IMG/VR virus record: IMGVR_UViG_2548876954_000009
Length of the DNA: 43,895 nucleotides
Strand: one strand, 5' to 3'
DNA from: a virus
Taxonomy: Duplodnaviria; Heunggongvirae; Uroviricota; Caudoviricetes
Part shown: positions 19,598 through 39,408 of the stretch, one piece after another
How the letters are laid out: each line of letters begins with the position of its first letter
Numbering within the stretch: the stretch's first letter is position 1
Notes under the pieces: model-generated
Databases searched by the model: none
Told to the model about the DNA's origin: nothing
Seen by the model: the letters and a program-made list of their open reading frames with translations, nothing else
Made by a program: the position numbers and the translations under genes

Positions 19598-21106
19598 TTA
19601 TTCTTCGAACTGGTCGTCGGTGTGCTGCGGATCCTGTCGTTTCGTTGCGGCACTGCTGCCTCCTTTATCACTGGCCGGATCGGTATCAAATACCAGATCC
19701 AGCTTGCGGTTTTCATCAATTTCGGCCTTGCGCCGACGTTTGACATCATCCGGATTACGACCACCAGCACGTACCCAGTCTGATTCTGTCGCCGCTCCAC
19801 CACGAATCTGGATTTTCCAGGCCTCAGCCTCCTTAACAGGGTCAATCCACGGCATCACTGGTCCGGAATACACCGCGGTATACAGTGAAGAACGGTCAAG
19901 ATCGCGGGGTAGCCTGATAACACCGGATGCCACAGCCTGTTTCAGCCAGGCACGATACATCGGGCGGGTGACGGCACCAATAAACCAGTCCTGCAGGATC
20001 AGGTAGCCATCAGTAGACTCAACCAGTTCCTGACGCTGGGCGCTGTAAGTGCCGTTATAGTTGCGTGCCGTACTGGAAAAACTCAGACGACTGCCCGCCG
20101 CCACGGCACGCAACTGACCATTACGAAAAGTTTCAAGGTTAGGATTGGGACGATCCGACTTCACCATTCCGATTTCTTCGCCGGGTTTCAGATCGTCGTA
20201 AATAATGCCTGGCTGAATGGTAAGCTCGCGTTCATTCTCCTTGCTGTCATTACCATCCGTTTCATAGCTCTGTCCGTCGCCTTTCCGGATGTACATCCCC
20301 AGAGCAGCGGCGATCCTTGCTGCAGTCAGCTCAGAATCTTCATACTCTTTCAGGGCGCTGAGGCGGATCAGCACACCGGACAATAAAGACGTCCCGCGCA
20401 TCTGGTGCAGACGGCGAACAAATTTAAGATGCAGCATTCGCTCTGCATCCACTTCTTTGGTTTCCATCTGCCGTCCGGATATGGGACGGCTTTTATACAC
20501 CAGATATTTTTCGGGACGCCCCCAGTCATCAACAAACACGCCCTGATTCAGCCTGTTGCTCTCATCACTGGTCATGGGAATAAAGTCCGGCTCGAGCGCC
20601 TCCAGCCAGAAATGAACACCGGCAGAAGGCGTCAGGCTGTTTATGCGCCCGGAAACCATCTGGGCAAACACCTCACCATCGCGCAGCCAGGTACGCAGCA
20701 TCAGACGTTCCAGCATCGGACGGGTAAACTGCCCGGTGACTTCCGGACTGACAGACCATTCACTCCATCGGGTGCGTATCTCCGCTGCCAGATCACGGGC
20801 AATGGCCCCATTGCGTAATACCGGATGTGGCTCGACAATAATCCCGTTTTTCCCCACCACCCGTTCTTCCAGCTTGTCAAATACACCAATGACCAGATCG
20901 TGGTTGTTATCAAGGTAACGGGCCTGCTCACGTAACGACACGGCCCCGTACTGGCTTAACTGGTCGGCAGTTCGGTTCTCCCGCCGGGCTTTGTGTGTCC
21001 GCGTCGTTTTTACGGCCTCATAAGCCTGGATCACCGCACGGGAACGCAGCCTTGCCGCTTTCCATCCTGGTGAAAAAACGCCAATCACATCATCAAGAAT
21101 TGCCAT
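19598..21106 (-). CDS. B: Portal protein (lambda B family)
   Basis: About 502 aa from ATG 21106 overlapping W stop (TGATG); position between W and capsid. Confidence 0.85.
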   Translation of the reverse strand: MAILDDVIGVFSPGWKAARLRSRAVIQAYEAVKTTRTHKARRENRTADQLSQYGAVSLREQARYLDNNHDLVIGVFDKLEERVVGKNGIIVEPHPVLRNGAIARDLAAEIRTRWSEWSVSPEVTGQFTRPMLERLMLRTWLRDGEVFAQMVSGRINSLTPSAGVHFWLEALEPDFIPMTSDESNRLNQGVFVDDWGRPEKYLVYKSRPISGRQMETKEVDAERMLHLKFVRRLHQMRGTSLLSGVLIRLSALKEYEDSELTAARIAAALGMYIRKGDGQSYETDGNDSKENERELTIQPGIIYDDLKPGEEIGMVKSDRPNPNLETFRNGQLRAVAAGSRLSFSSTARNYNGTYSAQRQELVESTDGYLILQDWFIGAVTRPMYRAWLKQAVASGVIRLPRDLDRSSLYTAVYSGPVMPWIDPVKEAEAWKIQIRGGAATESDWVRAGGRNPDDVKRRRKAEIDENRKLDLVFDTDPASDKGGSSAATKRQDPQHTDDQFEE

Positions 21107-29032: not shown

Positions 29033-30028
29033 TTACGCCAGTACGCCTATTGCCAGCGCACGATCGATAAAACGAAATATCAGCTCCAGCTGGGAGCCAT
29101 ACTTCTCTTCAAATGCCACGGTATCCGCATGCAGCTCGTCGTGATGCTTTCTGCACAAAGGCAACACAAAGAGGTCATGCGCTTTTGTACCCATTCCACC
29201 CTGACCGTGACCTATCAGGTGGTGGGGATCATCAGCAGGCTTTCCACAACATGCACACGGCTGTGTCTTAACCCAGCGTGTGTACTTTTCATTAACCCAG
29301 CGGCGACGTTTTGGGCGTAACATAAAAGACTCCGGCGACTCCGGATCCACTTTCAGCGCCAGCACCTTTTTTGCCTTATCCTGGATGATGCTGGTGGCAG
29401 GAACCGAAGGCACAAGGTCACTTTCCCGGGTGACAGACGGCACAACAGGCTTTGGTAATCTCAGTGCTTTACGGGCTGCACTTTCCGGTAAGGCATCCGC
29501 CAGGTCATTACGAATCAGCCACCAGCACAGTTCCGGCATTGTCACAACGTGACTATCATCAAAACCGAGATCCCGACGCACAACAGACAACACCCAGCGG
29601 GCACAGTTATCCGTTGCCATTGATTCCAGCCGTTCCGTGAACTGATCGCGCAGCTGGTTATCACAGTGCCAGCACAGACGGATTGCGCCCGGAGCGTGTC
29701 GCATTGTGGTCATGTTCTCGCTGTGCCAGTCGGAATGAGGCCACTGGCAGCCTTTTTCACGAAGTAACCAGCTTTCAAGACATTCCACGCCACCAGCACG
29801 ACGGATCACTGCCTCATTGCGGAACACGGCCCGAACAGCAGGATCATCCGCCAGCGGTTGTGATGCCGCGGGAACGGCACCACTGGCGAAAGATGAATAA
29901 CGTTCCGGCTCAGGCTCCAGCAGTACACGCCCCTGCATAAACAGGGGCATCAGCTCTGAACCAGGTCTGAACAATACGATCCCCATACGCGGGGCAATTT
30001 CAGGGGTCAGTAGTGCTCTCACGGTCAC
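29033..30028 (-). CDS. DUF968/YdfU-like protein (Cys/His-rich C-terminus); GTG start or internal ATG at 29986
   Basis: C-terminal ...CACCGKPADDPHHLIGHGQGG...LCRKHHDELH; position upstream of Q as in Qin. Confidence 0.6.
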   Translation of the reverse strand: MTVRALLTPEIAPRMGIVLFRPGSELMPLFMQGRVLLEPEPERYSSFASGAVPAASQPLADDPAVRAVFRNEAVIRRAGGVECLESWLLREKGCQWPHSDWHSENMTTMRHAPGAIRLCWHCDNQLRDQFTERLESMATDNCARWVLSVVRRDLGFDDSHVVTMPELCWWLIRNDLADALPESAARKALRLPKPVVPSVTRESDLVPSVPATSIIQDKAKKVLALKVDPESPESFMLRPKRRRWVNEKYTRWVKTQPCACCGKPADDPHHLIGHGQGGMGTKAHDLFVLPLCRKHHDELHADTVAFEEKYGSQLELIFRFIDRALAIGVLA

Positions 30029-30029
30029 C

Positions 30030-30845
30030 TCAATGAACGGTATCGAGCAGCTTTAACAGCTCAGGGAATCGGGATTCGAAGAAATGCGGCTGCGTCTCGC
30101 GCGGATTTGCAGGACTGGTGATGTTCTTGCCGAACATGCAGCCTTTCGCGGTCAGCGACCAGAATTTTTTGATGTTGTTAATCGCGGTACGACTGTATCG
30201 TTCGCGTTGTTCAACGATCCCCAGCTTCGCCATCTGGTGATATGCCTGATTAGCCGTCAGGCGGATACCATACTGCTTCAGCAGTGCACTCAGCGACAGC
30301 GTAGGGCGGCTTGAACCATCTGGCGCATCAGCAGGTGCATCAATGGCATAGATCGGCATAAGTTCAGGAAGACCAGCTACCTTTGATAATTTCTGGTATG
30401 CACCAAGTTTCGAGGAGTTTGACAGATTTAGAGTCTTTGCTGCTGATTCAAGCAGAATGACCCCGGATTTAATTTTGTCGGATGTGGTTTCTTCTGGTGA
30501 TGAATTATGAAGCGCATCAAAAGTACGTATCACTTTTAAGCTGAATGCCGGGCTGATCCACATTGCATATGCATAGACCAGCTCTTTACAGACATACGTC
30601 CCACCATTGCGCCCCTGAATGGTGATGACAGGAATACTACGGGAATCTCCCGTAGTTTCTTCTTCCAATAATTCCACAAGAGCCTTCGTTTCAGGACGAC
30701 GCATAAACTCGTGAACTTCCAGCGAACGGGAGGAGCGATTCTCACCAGCGGCAAGAAGAGCAGCTTTCTGAAGGTCGTTAAGACAGTAGTTAGATTCGAA
30801 GTACTGGCGCACAGAAACGCCATCAATTACAAGCAACTGATTCAT
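30030..30845 (-). CDS. KilA-N domain protein
   Basis: N-terminal KilA-N/APSES-like signature (...GRNGGTYVCKELVYAYAMWISPAF...); ATG 30845 with GGAGA RBS. Confidence 0.65.
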   Translation of the reverse strand: MNQLLVIDGVSVRQYFESNYCLNDLQKAALLAAGENRSSRSLEVHEFMRRPETKALVELLEEETTGDSRSIPVITIQGRNGGTYVCKELVYAYAMWISPAFSLKVIRTFDALHNSSPEETTSDKIKSGVILLESAAKTLNLSNSSKLGAYQKLSKVAGLPELMPIYAIDAPADAPDGSSRPTLSLSALLKQYGIRLTANQAYHQMAKLGIVEQRERYSRTAINNIKKFWSLTAKGCMFGKNITSPANPRETQPHFFESRFPELLKLLDTVH

Positions 30846-30942
30846 TGGTTTCTCCACAAATTTTTATCCACGAGCGGGACTGCACTCCCTTTTCGTTGAT
30901 GCCGGATGAACTTACTGCGATTTTTAATAGTTATCAAGGATA

Positions 30943-30962
30943 CACTGTTCATAAATACAGTA
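30943..30962. promoter_or_regulatory. Near-consensus LexA/SOS box (CTGT-N8-ACAG) upstream of kilA-N/DUF968/Q operon
   Basis: cACTGTtcATAaATACAGTA, 16/20 match to TACTGTATATATATACAGTA with invariant CTGT and ACAG intact. Confidence 0.55.
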
Positions 30963-31007
30963 TCTTTAACGAGGTAATACCCAAATTTAGGGTGTTGCTC
31001 AATTCCG

Positions 31008-31403
31008 TTACCGAGTTGCTAATTTGCAACTCGCTTTTTCGTACTTACTGATAGTGATCTCGACCTTCCCCTCCGGGATAACCGGTCCCCACTCCACCAG
31101 CATTCTTTTCACCTGACTGTCGTCTTCCCACACACCCGCGTGGGTCAGGGCGTCAAACAGCGCCTTGTTATAGTTGTCCAGATCGCGGATCCGGTTATCC
31201 GGAGGAAACAACACGATCTCCACTGAAGCAGGTGCCGACGTTGGTTTCGGCAGACGACGTAACTGCTCAACTATTGCTGCACACGCCGCGCTCTGGAATT
31301 TTCGCCCCGCCGCGCTTATCAGGCTCTTACCAGCAAACGCCCCTTTGTTGGGGTGTCGCCAGTACGTGTTCACGCTGGGCGGAAAAGGCAGAATCAGCTT
31401 CAT
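31008..31403 (-). CDS. rusA: Holliday junction resolvase RusA
   Basis: 131 aa, ...RIRDLDNYNKALFDALTHAGVWEDDSQV... RusA signature. Confidence 0.9.
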   Translation of the reverse strand: MKLILPFPPSVNTYWRHPNKGAFAGKSLISAAGRKFQSAACAAIVEQLRRLPKPTSAPASVEIVLFPPDNRIRDLDNYNKALFDALTHAGVWEDDSQVKRMLVEWGPVIPEGKVEITISKYEKASCKLATR

Positions 31404-31726
31404 ACTTTCAGGCCTCTCTCATGTAACCAATGGGCTGCACGCAGCCTGGCGTTTTCCTCACCGGCAAGCAGTGAGCGGATAATCCCGACCGCCTCGCTGT
31501 CGTCGTCCTTCACCACGGTATGAAGCGTGATCCCCCGGGCCACACCACGCTTTATCGTGATGACGCCTTTTTTCTCCAGTGCGCGAAGATGCTCCACCGC
31601 TGCATTCACTGAACGGTATCCCAGCATGATTGCCACCTCCTGATTGGTTGGCGGGAAGCCACGTTCTTTCTGATAAGAAATCAGCATATCCAGCACCTGC
31701 TGCTGGCATTGAGTTAACGTCGTCAT
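31400..31726 (-). CDS. LexA N-terminal DNA-binding domain homologue lacking the S24 autocleavage domain
   Basis: QQQVLDMLISYQKERGFPPTNQEVAIMLGYRSVNAAVEHLRALEKKGVI..RGVARGITL aligns with LexA residues about 5-70 including recognition-helix S-x-N-A-A; only 108 aa. Confidence 0.75.
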   Translation of the reverse strand: MTTLTQCQQQVLDMLISYQKERGFPPTNQEVAIMLGYRSVNAAVEHLRALEKKGVITIKRGVARGITLHTVVKDDDSEAVGIIRSLLAGEENARLRAAHWLHERGLKV

Positions 31727-32376
31727 GCCGCCATCTCCCTGACCAGTTTTTCCGCCTGCTGGCGAACCTGCGCCAGAAACGCCTCACCACATGCCTCAAG
31801 TTCATCGCGCCCGATGTAGCTGATTGCCGGTCCCTTCCAGGTCTTGTCGAAAACAGCAATAGCACCAGCGAAGAAAGCGCCTGTCGGCACCTGCTTCTCA
31901 TCTTTCGGGATAAACCAGGCAGGCAGTTCAAAACCAATACGCCCGCGAATAAAAGCAATATGATCTGCATCTTCCGGCCACCACACTTCGCTGGTGGCAG
32001 CTTTGATCAGGAAAACATAGCGCCCGCCTTTATCACGCATGGCACTGGCATGCTTCATGATGTAACGCATGCCGGTGATGTATTGCCCCTCATGCTGACT
32101 GGCGCGGCTGTATGGGGGATTACCAAAGGCAGCACCTTTAAGCTCCGCAAGACGTTCTGACCAGTCATGCGCCAGCGCGTTGTCTTCCGCCGTGTAATAC
32201 GCGGCACATTTGGTGTTATCACCGTCAGTGAACAGATCCAGAACAAACGGGCCAAACAGGGTGTTAATTCCCCAGAAAATGTTGTCCGGCGTGCGCCACT
32301 GATCGCCCACTTCCTTCAGTTCATGGGCTGGTTTGTTCCGCAGTTCCACCAGCGCCTGGCAATATTTATTACTCAT
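31723..32376 (-). CDS. Phage DNA N6-adenine methyltransferase (orphan Dam-type)
   Basis: NPPY motif (FGNPPYSRA); ATG 32376 overlaps upstream stop (TAATG). Confidence 0.8.
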   Translation of the reverse strand: MSNKYCQALVELRNKPAHELKEVGDQWRTPDNIFWGINTLFGPFVLDLFTDGDNTKCAAYYTAEDNALAHDWSERLAELKGAAFGNPPYSRASQHEGQYITGMRYIMKHASAMRDKGGRYVFLIKAATSEVWWPEDADHIAFIRGRIGFELPAWFIPKDEKQVPTGAFFAGAIAVFDKTWKGPAISYIGRDELEACGEAFLAQVRQQAEKLVREMAA

Positions 32377-32864
32377 TAAGCCCCCACGTAATTCCCTGAC
32401 AGATACCACTCTTCACCCGATGCAGCGCGCTTGCTGCTTTTCCGTAAGCACCGCTCACGACGCGCCAGAAAATTGTTTCGTTCTGGCTGGGAGTGGCTTT
32501 CACGGAATGCCGCCATCCACACCGTTGCAGCACGACGGTATAAGCCCCTGGACTCCAGTTCTTCAGCCTGGCGGGTCAGGCACAAAATCTCCCGCGGGTC
32601 GTTAGTGCCGACATAGAAATTGCGCACAGGTCTGGTTTCACGAACTGGTTGCGGTTCCGCCTCCTGCGCTCTCTCAGTCAGGCGCGGGAAATGTCTGCGT
32701 GTATCCCCTTCACAACGGTGAGCCACACGACCACTCTGACGTAACTTGCTTGCTGACTGCAGAACGCGCTGCCGTGAGTAACCTGCAAAAGCATCCGCAA
32801 TGTCTCCGGAAGTACACCCCGGATGGGCTTCAATGTATTTCTGAACTTCATTCAAAAGACTCAT
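32376..32864 (-). CDS. Putative PerC-like transcriptional regulator
   Basis: C-terminal ...AEELESRGLYRRAATVWMAAF... resembles PerC family; ATG at 32864. Confidence 0.35.
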   Translation of the reverse strand: MSLLNEVQKYIEAHPGCTSGDIADAFAGYSRQRVLQSASKLRQSGRVAHRCEGDTRRHFPRLTERAQEAEPQPVRETRPVRNFYVGTNDPREILCLTRQAEELESRGLYRRAATVWMAAFRESHSQPERNNFLARRERCLRKSSKRAASGEEWYLSGNYVGA

Positions 32865-32866
32865 GA

Positions 32867-33685
32867 TCACCCCCTGAATCCTGCCGGGATCTGGCTGTAG
32901 TCCACGTTGTCGTAACTGGCTTTGAAGTACGGGTCCTCGCGTCTGGCTGCAGATACCACAGGAACTTCCCAGGATTCTTCGAAATGACGATCCGGACCAA
33001 AGAACGTGACAGCCTGTTTCACAAATTGTGTGCCGCTGTTACCCATCGCAGATACCCAGCCCGCATAGCGTTTCACACCTTCCAGCATGGTTTCGGGGTT
33101 TACCCCCTCATTCAAACGGGCTTTCCAGGCTTTGAAGGCTGCAGATTTTGAATTGCCACCAGCACGTTTGGGATATGCCAGCCATGCCTGCTCAAACTCC
33201 GGAGAGTATTCCGGTCGGTTTGAACGAACTCGCACAGACTCATCAGCAGATGCACCAACAGCTATTGGTTCATTGACTGGTTCTTTGGCTGGTTCAAAAG
33301 AGTGACTGGTTCTGGGTGAATCTCCTGCACTACCCCCTGGTGCAACTCCTGCACTACCTGGTGAATTTGCTGCACCAGATAGTGAATTATTTGCACTACC
33401 CCCTAGTGAATCTCCTGCACCATCAAGATGAAGGAGATAGATATTACTTGAGTTACCTTTTTCACCTTTCCGGGTGACTTTTTTTACCAGCCCGGAATCA
33501 CAAAGGGCCGCAATATGATTCATCACAGAACGTTTGCTAATCTCGCACTGGTCAGCAATATGCTGGTAGCTGGGCCAGCACTCACCCTGATCGCTGGCAT
33601 TATCAGCCAGCTTGATCAGAACCAGTTTTCGCAATGGATTACCCACTCGAATTTTCATCGCTTTAACCATCAGCTCCATACTCAT
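32867..33685 (-). CDS. Putative replication initiator/replisome organiser (HTH N-domain, Gly/Ser-rich linker, YdaU/O-like)
   Basis: N-terminal HTH (...SYQHIADQCEISKRSVMNHIAALCDSGLV...), linker encoded by iteron-like repeats, GGAGG RBS before ATG 33685. Confidence 0.5.
   Translation of the reverse strand: MSMELMVKAMKIRVGNPLRKLVLIKLADNASDQGECWPSYQHIADQCEISKRSVMNHIAALCDSGLVKKVTRKGEKGNSSNIYLLHLDGAGDSLGGSANNSLSGAANSPGSAGVAPGGSAGDSPRTSHSFEPAKEPVNEPIAVGASADESVRVRSNRPEYSPEFEQAWLAYPKRAGGNSKSAAFKAWKARLNEGVNPETMLEGVKRYAGWVSAMGNSGTQFVKQAVTFFGPDRHFEESWEVPVVSAARREDPYFKASYDNVDYSQIPAGFRG
33316..33427. repeat. Five tandem 21-24 bp direct repeats (iteron-like; candidate ori) inside the replication gene
   Basis: Units GTGAATCTCCTGCACTACCCCCTG / GTGCAACTCCTGCACTACCTG / GTGAATTTGCTGCACCAGATA / GTGAATTATTTGCACTACCCCCTA / GTGAATCTCCTGCACCATCAAG. 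Confidence 0.55.
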
Positions 33686-33918
33686 GCTGCACCTCCGAGA
33701 TGCTTCATGTTTTTTCCGGAGCAAAAGGCTATAAGCGGCATACTGATGCGGTAATTACGGCCCAGCGGTTCACAAATCACCTTCTGACATTCACGGTCAA
33801 CCAGGCTAACACGTAGAACATGCCCTGCAGGCGTGGTGTACCACTGCCCAACTGTAGGAATTGATGTTTTTTTACGCTTAAGCAAACGGCAAATATTGAG
33901 GATCAACGGATTAAGCAT
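33682..33918 (-). CDS. Small basic hypothetical protein, translationally coupled to replication gene
   Basis: 78 aa; GGAGGG RBS; stop overlaps downstream ATG (ATGA). Confidence 0.4.
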   Translation of the reverse strand: MLNPLILNICRLLKRKKTSIPTVGQWYTTPAGHVLRVSLVDRECQKVICEPLGRNYRISMPLIAFCSGKNMKHLGGAA

Positions 33919-34747
33919 GACGATGCCCTCCGCGGATATTCAGGAGACGGTGAATATGAAAATTAGCCTTATCCGCCAGACGAATACGTTCAGCTTGCAA
34001 GTTAAGAAGGGTTTCTACCAGAACCTGATGCGCCTGCGGATCCGAAAGAGTTACCTTGCGCAGAGCACGTAGTGCAGTCGTTACATAACTGAGTTTATGT
34101 AAGTCTTCATCATTCAGACGAGTGAGGGCTGGGACAGTAGCCATGATGGCAGCCTCCTTGATCGGTGAAATACTTCCACCACCGGAAACGCCAATTTCGC
34201 TGGTGGTGAACTGAACGGGGTTGGCGTAACCGGTGATCAAGGAAACCGGCGCATCTTTCGATGCCCCCGCCCAGCCCACCATAACTTTGATGTGAGCAAA
34301 TGCGGACGATAAAAAAGACGCTGGCGCGTCATATATCGCCTTGATCAATTCCAGGACGCCAATCCCGGCACCCGCTTTATAAGGTGCCTGAACAGTGTAA
34401 CGTCCCGGAATGGCAGAATCAATGTGCTGGTGGTCCTTCACACTCAACAAAATCACGCCTGAATTTCCACAAAGGACTAAAGCACTCATGCGGGTAGTCT
34501 TTGCGAAGATAGATAACGCGCTGTGTTTCTGGCTCCCAACGAATAACATGAACATAAAGTCCTCTTCCGTCACGAAACCAGCGGTTAAGTTCCTGCACAA
34601 CTCGCCCCCCACAGTCAGGTAAAGTTCTCTGTGGTTACTTACAGCCAGGTGATTTGGTAATCTGCATTCATGCCGTAACAACAGGTGTTCAGCGACGCTG
34701 ACCACCAGCTGTTGCGACAAACGGTTATTTGCCGTTAAACTGTTCAT
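33911..34747 (-). CDS. Hypothetical protein (278 aa) in early-right operon
   Basis: ATG overlaps upstream stop (ATGA); no recognisable motif, no Walker A. Confidence 0.4.
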   Translation of the reverse strand: MNSLTANNRLSQQLVVSVAEHLLLRHECRLPNHLAVSNHRELYLTVGGELCRNLTAGFVTEEDFMFMLFVGSQKHSALSIFAKTTRMSALVLCGNSGVILLSVKDHQHIDSAIPGRYTVQAPYKAGAGIGVLELIKAIYDAPASFLSSAFAHIKVMVGWAGASKDAPVSLITGYANPVQFTTSEIGVSGGGSISPIKEAAIMATVPALTRLNDEDLHKLSYVTTALRALRKVTLSDPQAHQVLVETLLNLQAERIRLADKANFHIHRLLNIRGGHRHA

Positions 34748-35307
34748 GCGTTAGTTTCTCCACAGACACAAAACGCCACGACGCCCGGAGCTGCACACTC
34801 GCGGGCGTCACTCTTTTCTGGAGCGCAAAAGATTTTGTAGACCAGTGCTGCATGCTCCTGGAGCTTCGAAATTGACAGATACAACTCATCATTAATTGCT
34901 GTCTGCTCGTGTGGCTCCACGACCCCATCTTCGATTGCCGAACGAATCTGCTTTGAGTAACTCCCGATCTGTTCGATGACTTCCAGCAGGCGCTGGTTTA
35001 TATCGGCATTCTCTACTTCCTCAATTTCAGGAAGCGATACAAACACCCCACCAGCAGACTGTGCGACAGCATCCGCAATGTAGTGAGTGCCAGCCGCGCG
35101 CTGTAAAATCATTGCCCATCCCAGCGGGAAAATCTGATCGCCATCTGCACGAAGGCGGTTGAATAAAGCGTTCTCTGTTACATCCAGCCACTCAGCAGCT
35201 TCAGCGTAACCCCCCGGCAACGCCGCGATAGTTTTCCTGACAGCTTTCACGTACCACTCAGGCTGTTTTTCTATTTTCCAGTGATGCTTACCCACGATTA
35301 GCCTCAT
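34744..35307 (-). CDS. Putative CII/YdaT-like regulatory protein
   Basis: 187 aa immediately downstream of cro-like gene, the position of cII/ydaT. Confidence 0.35.
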   Translation of the reverse strand: MRLIVGKHHWKIEKQPEWYVKAVRKTIAALPGGYAEAAEWLDVTENALFNRLRADGDQIFPLGWAMILQRAAGTHYIADAVAQSAGGVFVSLPEIEEVENADINQRLLEVIEQIGSYSKQIRSAIEDGVVEPHEQTAINDELYLSISKLQEHAALVYKIFCAPEKSDARECAAPGVVAFCVCGETNA

Positions 35308-35629: not shown

Positions 35630-36304
35630 ATGAAAACAATCCATGACATCCGGCGGTCTAACGCCAGAAAACTGAGAGATGGTGTTGGCGGGAATTCTTC
35701 CTTTGCCACTATGATTGATCGCGAGCCAACCCAGACCAGCAGGTTTATGGGAGATGGTGCTACTAAAAATATCGGTGACAGCATGGCACGACACATCGAA
35801 AAATGTTTCGACCTGCCTGTCGGATGGCTCGATCAAGAACACCAGACAACGAACATCACAAAAAAACCTGATGTTTCAATCACTAATAAACAAATCACAT
35901 TAGTCCCTGTCATATCATGGGTACAGGCCGGAGCATGGAAAGAAGTTGGATATTCTGAGGTTGATTTGAGCACAGCAGAAACGTATCCCTGCCCTGTACC
36001 CTGTGGGGAAATGACTTATATCTTGCGGGTGATAGGTGATTCAATGATTGATGAGTACCGCCCGGGAGACATGATTTTTGTCGATCCTGAAGTACCTGCC
36101 TGCCACGGTGACGACGTTATTGCATTGATGCACGATACAGGTGAAACCACCTTCAAAAGGTTGATAGAAGATGGGACACAGCGTTATCTCAAAGCGTTAA
36201 ACCCAAACTGGCCTGAGCCTTACATTAAGATCAACGGTAATTGCTCTATAATTGGAACTGTGATTTTCTCAGGAAAACCAAGAAGATACAAAATCAAAGC
36301 CTAA
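35630..36304 (+). CDS. cI: CI-type repressor (N-terminal HTH, C-terminal S24 LexA-like peptidase)
   Basis: 224 aa; C-terminal ...VIGDSMIDEYRPGDMIFVDPE... S24 signature with catalytic Ser and downstream Lys (FKRL); divergent from cro. Confidence 0.9.
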   Translation: MKTIHDIRRSNARKLRDGVGGNSSFATMIDREPTQTSRFMGDGATKNIGDSMARHIEKCFDLPVGWLDQEHQTTNITKKPDVSITNKQITLVPVISWVQAGAWKEVGYSEVDLSTAETYPCPVPCGEMTYILRVIGDSMIDEYRPGDMIFVDPEVPACHGDDVIALMHDTGETTFKRLIEDGTQRYLKALNPNWPEPYIKINGNCSIIGTVIFSGKPRRYKIKA

Positions 36305-36343: not shown

Positions 36344-36380
36344 TTGACAATGTACCCATGAGATACATAATGTACCCAAG
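36344..36380 (+). promoter_or_regulatory. Putative PL promoter with OL operators
   Basis: TTGACA (36344..36349), 16-nt spacer, CATAAT; overlapped by ATGTACCCATGAGATACAT and a second ATGTACCCA copy sharing the OR half-site. Confidence 0.5.
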
Positions 36381-36456
36381 AGAAACAACAAACAGGCAGG
36401 ACGCCCACGAAGTAGCCGCCAGGGGCATATGAAGTCCTGGATGATTCGTTAGTAAC

Positions 36457-37919: not shown

Positions 37920-38744
37920 ATGTCTCAGAACTTAGACGCAACCGCAATTAATCAAATCCATGCCCTTATTTCTGCTCAGGGTGTTAATGAAATTATCAGT
38001 AAGATTGGTGCCGACGCAGTGGCATTACCTGAAAATTTCCGCATTCATGATCTGGAAAAATTTAATTTAAATCGCTTCCGTTTCCGTGGTGCGCTTTCCA
38101 CTGCCAGCATCGATGACTTTACCCGTTATTCTAAAGATCTTGCAGATGAAGGCACCCGCTGCTTTATCGATGCCGATAATATGCGAGCCGTCAGTGTGCT
38201 TAACCTAGGCACTATTGATGAACCTGGTCATGCAGATAACACCGCCACTCTCAAACTGAAAAAGACAGCACCGTTCTCTGCTCTGTTGTCTGTTAATGGC
38301 GAGCGTAACTCCCAGAAGTCACTGGCAGAATGGATTGAAGACTGGGCCGACTACCTTGTAGGCTTTGATGCTAATGGTGACGCTATTCAGGCAACAAAAG
38401 CGGCTGCGGCTGTCCGTAAAATCACGATTGAAGCAAACCAGACCGCTGATTTTGAAGATAATGACTTCAGCGGAAAACGCTCCCTGATGGAGTCTGTCGA
38501 AGCGAAGACCAAAGATATTATGCCAGTGGCATTTGAATTTAAATGCGTTCCGTTTGAAGGTCTGAAAGAACGTCCGTTTAAATTACGCCTCAGCATTATC
38601 ACTGGCGATCGTCCTGTACTGGTTCTGCGCATTATTCAGTTGGAAGCAGTCCAGGAAGAAATGGCTAACGAATTTCGTGATCTGCTTGTTGAGAAATTCA
38701 AAGACAGCAAAGTAGAAACCTTTATTGGTACTTTCACCGCCTGA
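37920..38744 (+). CDS. YfdQ-like protein (DUF2303)
   Basis: 274 aa, [20 protein letters not shown]...; same length as recalled YfdQ. Confidence 0.65.
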
Positions 38745-38871
38745 TTTCATTACTGCAAATGCCCCTGCGGGGGCATTTATGGAAACGTAATTTACTCAAT
38801 AATCGCCGGATGGTAAGGGATTCTTTTTACCAGAATTCAGCGCGGTGCAGCGCATATACGTGGAGAACAAA

Positions 38872-39408
38872 ATGTCATTTATTAAAACTTTTTCCGGGAA
38901 GCATTTTTATTATGACAAGATAAATAAAGATGACATCGTTATTAACGATATCGCGGTTTCCCTTTCAAATATCTGTCGTTTTGCAGGACATCTTTCACAC
39001 TTCTACAGTGTCGCCCAGCATGCGGTGCTTTGCAGCCAGCTGGTGCCGCAGGAATTTGCTTTTGAAGCGTTAATGCATGATGCAACAGAAGCGTATTGCC
39101 AGGACATCCCCGCACCACTGAAACGCCTTCTTCCTGACTATAAACGGATGGAAGAAAAAATAGATGCCGTAATCCGTGAGAAATACGGGTTACCCCCGGT
39201 TATGAGCACGCCCGTGAAATATGCCGATCTCATCATGCTGGCAACCGAACGCCGCGATCTCGGGCTTGATGATGGCTCTTTCTGGCCTGTATTGGAAGGT
39301 ATCCCGGCAACAGAGATGTTCAAAGTGATTCCACTGGCTCCAGGCCATGCCTACGGGATGTTTATGGAACGTTTTAACGAGTTATCGGAGTTACGCAAAT
39401 GCGCATGA
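38872..39408 (+). CDS. HD-domain phosphohydrolase, YfdR-like 5'-deoxynucleotidase
   Basis: MSFIKTFSGKHFYY...; HD motif (ALMHDATEAY) and upstream His; ATG 38872 with GGAG RBS. Confidence 0.7.
   Translation: MSFIKTFSGKHFYYDKINKDDIVINDIAVSLSNICRFAGHLSHFYSVAQHAVLCSQLVPQEFAFEALMHDATEAYCQDIPAPLKRLLPDYKRMEEKIDAVIREKYGLPPVMSTPVKYADLIMLATERRDLGLDDGSFWPVLEGIPATEMFKVIPLAPGHAYGMFMERFNELSELRKCA

Follow-up and report, generated by a model that had tools for sequence, protein, structure and literature searches.

A predicted iteron origin inside the replication initiator gene of an SfV-type lambdoid phage module without a recognisable helicase loader

We analyzed a 43,895-bp stretch of viral DNA (Caudoviricetes; IMG/VR record IMGVR_UViG_2548876954_000009), hereafter the window, in which the putative replication gene, rep, carries five short direct repeats. 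The repeats are very probably the initiator-binding iterons of a phage replication origin, located inside the initiator gene at the junction of the two domains of its product. Read in this way, the origin is of ordinary lambda-type design, and the arrangement without a loader gene is a recognised but unexplained variant of it. The step of helicase recruitment is less certain than the assignment of the iterons and the origin.

Iterons within the initiator gene

Tandem Repeats Finder (TRF) detects an array of period 24 at 33316..33420 (4.6 copies, score 77) together with a period-21 sub-array. On the coding (minus) strand all five units share the invariant core GTGCA-N5-T[G/T]CAC, with start-to-start distances of 24, 21, 21 and 24 bp. 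The core pattern has exactly five matches in the window. Shuffling the sequence 100 times gave an expectation of 0.32 matches and never as many as five, and TRF finds no second iteron-like cluster in the window. The array and the core matches bear out an earlier note on this DNA, which had described five head-to-tail repeats of 21–24 bp inside the replication gene; the 19-bp consensus given there, GTGAATCTCCTGCACTACC, proves to be the plus-strand reading of the full site, an imperfect 19-bp palindrome T-R-GTGMA-N5-TKCAC-Y-A derived from 124 distinct sites in relatives. In the window the arms of the iterons, 5 bp each, are unvarying, synonymous positions included, while the central 5 bp vary and alter the encoded amino acids (GD, NN, AN, GV and GD). 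Invariant arms around amino-acid-changing spacers are what one would expect of a dimer-binding DNA site and not of a protein repeat.

The product of rep matches PHROG 270 ('replication initiation protein', E 2.7e-88), with 'O-like' among the PHROG labels, and the Pfam family HTH_36 (PF13730, E 2.8e-11, 43.5 bits with a cut-off of 25). DnaD_N falls below its threshold (23.2 bits, cut-off 27), and Phage_rep_O, the lambda O family, has no match at E<=0.01 in Pfam. The AlphaFold2 (AF2) model displays a confident winged helix at residues 1–88, disorder at residues 91–157, a four-helix domain at residues 158–232 and a disordered tail. The iterons code for residues 88–125, DGAGDSLGGSANNSLSGAANSPGSAGVAPGGSAGDSPR, so that the array sits between the winged helix and the helical domain, and the encoded Gly/Ser/Ala/Pro linker proposed in the earlier note falls in the disordered part of the model.

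We compared the array with 80 related loci from one-genome-per-species contigs of Gammaproteobacteria, 656 kb in total. The motif GTG[CA]A-N5-T[GT]CAC occurs in 42 of these loci, in 3–7 copies at the equivalent position of the gene and with a spacing of 21–24 bp; the hosts include Pseudomonas, Aeromonas, Shewanella, Marinomonas, Marinobacter, Vreelandella, Microbulbifer, Zymobacter, Wohlfahrtiimonas and Kosakonia. Outside the array position the motif has no match in the 656 kb. The copies span more than one reading frame in 29 of the 42 loci—spacings of 23 and 22 bp, for example, lead to VVQEIHQG instead of GSAGDSPG—and both copy orientations are present in 19 (ESPAP versus AGDSP). Since the DNA site stays constant while the encoded peptide changes, the constraint acts on the DNA: as far as sequences can tell, comparison shows the iterons to be conserved as DNA, independently of the peptide that they encode.

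A low-complexity linker expanded by slippage, in which the DNA itself has no function, would agree with the predicted disorder of the encoded stretch and with its variable length: the nearly identical initiators encoded by prophages of E. coli, Shigella and Salmonella contain 1 to 9 repeats and measure 242–302 aa. Such a linker is hardly credible given a 15-bp core that is kept across genera in different frames, in both orientations and in unlike peptides, arms that lack synonymous changes next to spacers that alter amino acids, and the lack of matches elsewhere in the related loci. The frame and orientation data likewise contradict the possibility, raised in the earlier note, that the repeats are no more alike than low-complexity linker coding would make them. 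In prophages with one or two repeats the origin may be defective.

The remaining 38 loci contain other palindromic repeats (for example GGGCA-N5-TGMCC, GTGCC-N5-TGGCA, GTGAC...GTCAC and GTAGGC-type), which agree with the iterons in position and in their 21/24-bp spacing, and phage SfII, with a different initiator N-domain, has GTCA-N5-TGAC repeats at a 15-bp spacing. Residues 1–47 of the initiator are nearly invariant over all iteron classes, while the predicted recognition helix (residues 48–58) and the wing are class-specific: the helix reads ISKRSVMNHI with GTGCA iterons, IGRSTVKxHxR with GGGCA, IDRSTVRKHIK with GTAGGC and CSKSAVRNHI with GTGCC. Covariation of the helix and wing with the iteron class is the signature of cognate initiator–iteron pairs, and across the 80 loci it lends indirect support to specific recognition of the iterons by the N-domain.

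Downstream of the iterons in the direction of transcription lies a conserved element of approximately 50 bp, which holds 12-nt GAACCAG... repeats (TRF period-12 array, 33266..33296). Its mean pairwise identity over 15 diverse loci is 0.79, 0.76 and 0.72 at codon positions 1, 2 and 3, compared with 0.76, 0.83 and 0.41 for the N-domain. A 15-nt core of the element, AGAAYCAGTMASTYT, follows the iterons in 73 of the 80 loci, among them 33 of the 38 whose iterons are of another type, and has no match elsewhere in the related loci. The presence of the core whatever the iteron type indicates that the element belongs to the origin module, independently of iteron specificity; it may be an unwinding site, a single-strand contact or a site for a host factor. 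No DnaA box was noticed by eye, and no systematic search for DnaA boxes was made.

Another reading takes the repeats for sites of an initiator-like protein that serve autoregulation, exclusion or copy control, with replication starting elsewhere or through host recombination or restart. The missing phage loader, the abundance of Chi sites (13 in the window versus 2 expected) without a recombination module, and the resemblance to phage LLS, the growth of which is enhanced by RecBCD (PMC12315714), all fit such a role. Regulatory sites, however, are expected at a promoter and not within a coding linker, and the window offers no other iteron-like cluster. Moreover, this combination of N-domain, iterons and post-iteron element is joined in relatives by P-like, DnaC-like or DnaB-like genes, in the classic arrangement of origin, initiator and loader. 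We consider a purely regulatory role unlikely and retain the origin as the preferred reading of the repeats.

Helicase recruitment and the DnaT-like tail

Pfam and PHROG scans of the open reading frames (ORFs) of the early-right, early-left and integrase regions revealed no P-type or DnaC-type loader and no helicase (the structural region was judged by ORF sizes only), and the annotation of Shigella phage SfV, with 53 genes, includes no loader or helicase gene. The earlier note had found no such gene near rep, and the scans and the SfV annotation agree. It had also suggested that initiation may differ from lambda O/P, which the missing loader gene continues to support: in 34 of 314 Enterobacterales lambdoid phages an O homologue stands alone, and the replication of this class is 'not yet understood' (Zheng et al., Genome Res 2025, PMC12315714).

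In the 80 loci, the C-terminal halves of the initiators behind the common origin module belong to at least seven unrelated, swapped classes. The partner genes that follow encode lambda-P-like, DnaC/IstB-like or DnaB-like proteins, or a conserved protein of 246–268 aa. The pairing of swapped C-terminal halves with P-like, DnaC-like or DnaB-like genes corresponds to lambda O/P logic. Close orthologues of the window protein (67–76% identity) have ...NW or ...NF/TF as their last residues, and a DnaC-like and a DnaB-like gene come after them. The 246–268-aa protein has no Pfam match and follows the initiator in most members of one C-terminal class (L005:4893-5699, L025:4897-5637 and about 20 other Pseudomonas/Halomonadaceae loci); the stop and start codons usually overlap. 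As other loci have a P-like or DnaC-like gene in this position, the protein may be a helicase loader or partner not yet described. Five Aeromonas prophages (L064, L066, L072, L074 and L077) share the N-domain and GTGCA-type iterons with the window but have a different C-terminal class, which ends in ...YDDSTPL; no loader or helicase can be recognised downstream. The Aeromonas arrangement adds an unrelated second type of loader-less module.

A loader beyond recognition might be encoded close to rep, by the 78-aa ORF, the 164-aa PerC-family ORF or another small early gene. The 78-aa ORF is of unknown function, the PerC-family ORF occupies the position of the loader gene in relatives and overlaps the stop codon of rep, and the 246–268-aa partner of the Pseudomonas relatives illustrates that unrecognised partners exist. 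Against this, a homologue of the 78-aa ORF (57% identity) precedes rep in loci L083 and L084, which encode DnaC-like and DnaB-like proteins, and the Ash domain of the 278-aa ORF is also present upstream of rep in L083. We rejected both ORFs as loader substitutes, as homologues of the 78-aa ORF and of the Ash domain stand before rep even where the prophage has its own loader and helicase genes. The PerC-family gene also follows rep in SfII and ST64B, but is missing from the loader-less phages mEp390, SPN1S and Tritos. The downstream gene of the loader-less modules is PerC-like in SfV, SfII and ST64B, similar to the LexA DNA-binding domain (LexA-DBD-like) in mEp390, DUF1064 in SPN1S and a 140-aa hypothetical gene in Tritos. 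With no downstream gene common to the loader-less modules, we judge the PerC-family gene an unlikely replacement, and a hidden loader of any kind appears quite improbable.

The module might also be incomplete and receive a loader in trans from a co-resident prophage: several lambdoid prophages are often present in one E. coli strain, and cryptic prophages hold DnaC-like genes such as ydaV. Such dependence is difficult to reconcile with the spread of the module, which is found in many sequenced phages (SfV, mEp460, Ayreon, 2H10, cdtI and Stx2c phages) and, with coverage of rep of at least 80%, in 897 of 5,426 complete E. coli genomes, or about 1 in 6. SfV and the mEp phages are, furthermore, plaque-forming. 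We regard supply in trans as very improbable. As the phage encodes no recognisable loader or helicase, the C-terminal half of the initiator would have to recruit host DnaB–DnaC directly.

The helical domain in this half consists of AF2 helices at residues 162–170, 180–192, 197–214 and 221–229, with a predicted local distance difference test (pLDDT) score of about 60–80. The region matches PHROG 1701 ('DnaD-like helicase loader') and PHROG 9327 ('primosomal protein'), and an equivalent domain is attached to other N-domains in Tritos_36 and in gp15 of Stx phage 75/02. PDB sequence searches with full-length and C-domain alignments gave chance-level matches only, and a Pfam scan of 12 C-domain sequences gave nothing meaningful. 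We rejected its equivalence to the single-stranded DNA-binding three-helix domain of DnaT (residues 84–153), for which the hhalign probability is 1.5%.

The extreme C-terminus does resemble DnaT. The window protein ends in ...DYSQIPAGFRG and E. coli DnaT in ...PDSQIPPGFRG (the latter checked against PDB 9zbt chain D); SQIPAGFRG is identical to DnaT residues 171–179 at 8 of 9 positions, and the stretch is C-terminal in both proteins. The tail of approximately 25 aa recurs almost unchanged (96% identity, tblastn) on SfII_41, an initiator of unrelated architecture, with 67% identity on ST64B sb42, which has the architecture of the window protein, and in more diverged form on mEp390_042. A longer consensus, RDVNxxSxPDxxIPxGFRG, which reads ...SYDNVDYSQIPAGFRG in the window protein, joins DnaT, Rac YdaU, the Gifsy-2 O homologue, Stx phage 75/02 gp15, SPN1S_0046, Tritos_36 and two genome loci; by eye, SPN1S_0046 resembles the entire C-domain of DnaT. 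Significant matches to the tail are restricted to phages of Escherichia, Salmonella, Klebsiella and Shigella. The tail is thus also carried by cryptic prophages of E. coli K-12: Rac YdaU (L093) ends in ...LPDSAIPPGFRG and its gene is followed by that of the DnaC homologue YdaV, and the gene upstream of yfdN matches only the last 76 bp of the window rep, that is, the part coding for the tail.

Twelve tail-bearing initiators were assessed for the gene that follows. A DnaC-like gene comes next in four (Rac, Gifsy-2, 75/02 and L045), eight have no loader (window/SfV, SfII, mEp390, ST64B, SPN1S, Klebsiella phage ST11-OXA245phi3.2, Tritos and L016), and a P-like or DnaB-like gene comes next in none of them. 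The tail is missing where lambda P uses DnaB without DnaC or where the phage brings its own helicase, which favors DnaC over DnaB as its partner. We infer, short of proof, that the tail serves as a dock for a DnaC loader of the E. coli type together with host DnaB. More generally, we tentatively propose, at somewhat less than even chances, that these ~20 residues are a portable docking peptide common to phage initiators and DnaT, which recruits DnaC with host DnaB to the origin-bound initiator. If true, a phage-encoded loader would be dispensable and the start of replication in 'O-only' lambdoid phages would be explained, while the uncharacterised tail of DnaT would gain a function in DnaB–DnaC recruitment.

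In the mechanism that we envisage, dimers of the N-terminal winged helix would bind the five iterons and form an O-some-like complex, and the DNA next to the array would open, with the conserved post-iteron element as the most probable place. As in lambda, transcription that starts at the early-right promoter would traverse the origin. The C-terminal half of the initiator would then bring in host DnaB–DnaC directly, the likeliest contact being the DnaT-like tail (...SQIPAGFRG), and later replication may lean on host recombination, given the 13 Chi sites and no recombination module.

Several observations weigh against parts of this scheme. The variation in repeat number implies that the copy number is loosely constrained or that some copies are defective. 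A nearest-neighbour stability scan reveals no lambda-like, strongly AT-rich tract near the array: the weakest nearby 40-mer (33430-33469), at only the 97th percentile for the window, is separated by the array from the post-iteron element, and this element is only moderately unstable, at about the 70–80th percentile. The C-domain has no detectable relative of known function. The match to DnaT spans only 9 residues, and BLASTP aligns the last 9 alone. Finally, the DnaT literature that we searched assigns no role to its last ~25 residues and leaves DnaB–DnaC recruitment open.

Gene context and spread of the module

The rep region is 98.3% identical to orf36–orf40 of Shigella phage SfV across 3.1 kb, where the record labels the repeat-bearing gene orf39 'replication protein', and shows 96–98% identity with many phages of E. 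coli and with Stx2c-converting phages. The ATG of rep overlaps the stop codon of the preceding 78-aa ORF (ATGA); an alternative upstream TTG start would extend the protein to 285 aa. Upstream of rep, the early-right operon comprises cro-like, CII-like (PF06892), 278-aa Ash-family and 78-aa ORFs, in this order, and continues after rep with PerC-family, Dam, LexA-DBD-like, RusA, KilA-N, DUF968/HNH and Q genes. The two ORFs preceding rep had been left unassigned in the earlier note; this still applies to the 78-aa ORF, whereas the 278-aa ORF can now be placed in the Ash family. NCBIfam has no match for rep, the 278-aa ORF, the 78-aa ORF or the other early ORFs. The coordinates of all these features are collected in Table 1.

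Table 1. Features of the rep region, in window coordinates
Feature	Position	Strand	Description
rep, replication initiator gene (SfV orf39 type)	32867..33685	-	272 aa from ATG; from the ORF list
Winged-helix DNA-binding domain, aa 1-88	33422..33685	-	predicted recognition helix about aa 48-58
Iteron 1 (first in transcription direction)	33406..33420	-	GTGCAGGAGATTCAC
Iteron 2	33382..33396	-	GTGCAAATAATTCAC
Iteron 3	33361..33375	-	GTGCAGCAAATTCAC
Iteron 4	33340..33354	-	GTGCAGGAGTTGCAC; arms perfectly palindromic, so both strands match
Iteron 5	33316..33330	-	GTGCAGGAGATTCAC
Conserved post-iteron element, ~50 bp	33266..33315	-	coding strand CCAGAACCAGTCACTCTTTTGAACCAGCCAAAGAACCAGTCAATGAACCA
Helical C-terminal domain, aa 158-232	32990..33214	-	FEQAW...FFGPDRHFEESW; AF2 helices
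C-terminal tail, aa 249-272	32870..32941	-	REDPYFKASYDNVDYSQIPAGFRG; end matches E. coli DnaT C-terminus
78-aa ORF	33682..33918	-	upstream of rep; PHROG 1153, function unknown
278-aa Ash-family (antirepressor-type) ORF	33911..34747	-	PF10554 E 1.3e-18; PHROG 3960 'transcriptional regulator'
164-aa PerC-family ORF	32376..32870	-	PF06069 E 7.5e-9; PHROG 1324 'transcriptional activator'

Of the Chi sites (GCTGGTGG) in the window, 13 compared with ~2 expected, 11 cluster in the early-right region at 29390..35055; the other two are at 19761 and 39567. The early-left operon contains no recognisable recombination module, and its ORFs are DUF2303/YfdQ-like, YfbR/YfdR-like and DUF551. The first two, at 37920..38744 (+) and 38845..39408 (+), are homologues of CPS-53 YfdQ (DUF2303) and of a YfdR/YfbR-like 5'-deoxynucleotidase. 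PMC4776307 reports that YfdR binds DnaA and the yfdQRST cluster inhibits initiation at oriC, which suggests a possible phage link to host replication control. A 20-bp unit, AATGTACCCAAGAGAAACAT, is tandemly duplicated at 36349..36387 (89% match), a short way downstream of the gene for the cI-like repressor (35630..36304). A 339-aa DUF4365 protein, encoded at 41381..42400 (+) between the early-left genes and the integrase (42672..43895, -), is probably the product of an accessory (moron) gene.

Comparison with known systems

Our literature searches, which did not extend to the SfV genome paper (Allison et al. 2002), found no described origin for SfV-type phages. The repeats, their 19-bp consensus and the flanking element would define the origin of a very common E. 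coli prophage replication module, also present in Stx2-converting and serotype-converting phages; this is chiefly a gain in annotation. The results further outline a family of initiator–iteron specificity pairs that is spread across Gammaproteobacteria. The loader-less variant matters more, as the replication of such phages is not understood according to the 2025 survey (PMC12315714). The comparative results make the loader question accessible to experiment through the swapped P-like, DnaC-like and DnaB-like partners, the presence of the DnaT-like tail on both loader-less and DnaC-coupled forms, and the restriction of the tail to Enterobacterales phages. They also bear on the unresolved hand-over of DnaB–DnaC by DnaT to the restart fork.

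One close parallel is ori-lambda. Phage lambda has several ~19-bp dyad-symmetric iterons within gene O, which code for the flexible linker between its DNA-binding and recruitment domains. The window shares the position of dyad-symmetric ~19-bp iterons inside an initiator gene, the coding of an inter-domain linker and the place of rep in the early-right operon after cII, and relatives with this origin module have a lambda-P-like gene after it. The likeness to lambda drawn in the earlier note is thus sustained by the five dyad-symmetric repeats at the domain junction of the initiator. The differences lie in the iteron sequence, in an initiator of the HTH_36 and not the Phage_rep_O family, in the missing P gene, in the lack of a strongly AT-rich tract, and in a conserved, non-AT-rich 50-bp element after the iterons.

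With the O-only modules exemplified by phage LLS (PMC12315714), the window has in common a lone O-type initiator, no helicase or loader, no recombination module and many Chi sites. The immunity proteins of LLS are closest to mEp460_4F5, a variant of phage mEp460, and mEp460 carries the rep region of the window. The O-only class of PMC12315714 is known by gene content, and the likeness to LLS is not based on the sequence type of the initiator. A combination of an HTH_36 N-domain with the DnaT C-terminal motif is known from DopC of the DopC/DopE pair, a domesticated O/P-like bacterial system (Brezellec et al. 2017, PMC5509034), and recurs in rep; in dopC, however, no iterons were found, and it is paired with a P-like gene (PMC5509034), whereas rep has iterons and no partner gene.

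DnaT itself shares the extreme C-terminus SQIP[P/A]GFRG with the window protein, and the longer consensus with other phage initiators. Several tail-bearing initiators precede a DnaC-like gene in the same way as dnaT precedes dnaC in the dnaT–dnaC operon (mentioned in PMC13377028). The rest of the rep product, however, is not DnaT-like, and DnaT works together with PriA and PriB at forks instead of at an origin.

A further comparison concerns the origins of iteron plasmids. At RK2 oriV with TrfA, or at the pPS10 origin with RepA, tandem initiator sites lie beside short direct repeats, and the specificities of initiator and iteron co-evolve. The window departs from this plan in that its putative origin lies within a coding sequence and the rep product matches neither Rep_3 nor the WH1-WH2 fold; it shares with these origins a set of tandem repeats, predicted to bind the initiator, that adjoin short direct repeats, and a co-evolving specificity of initiator and iteron.

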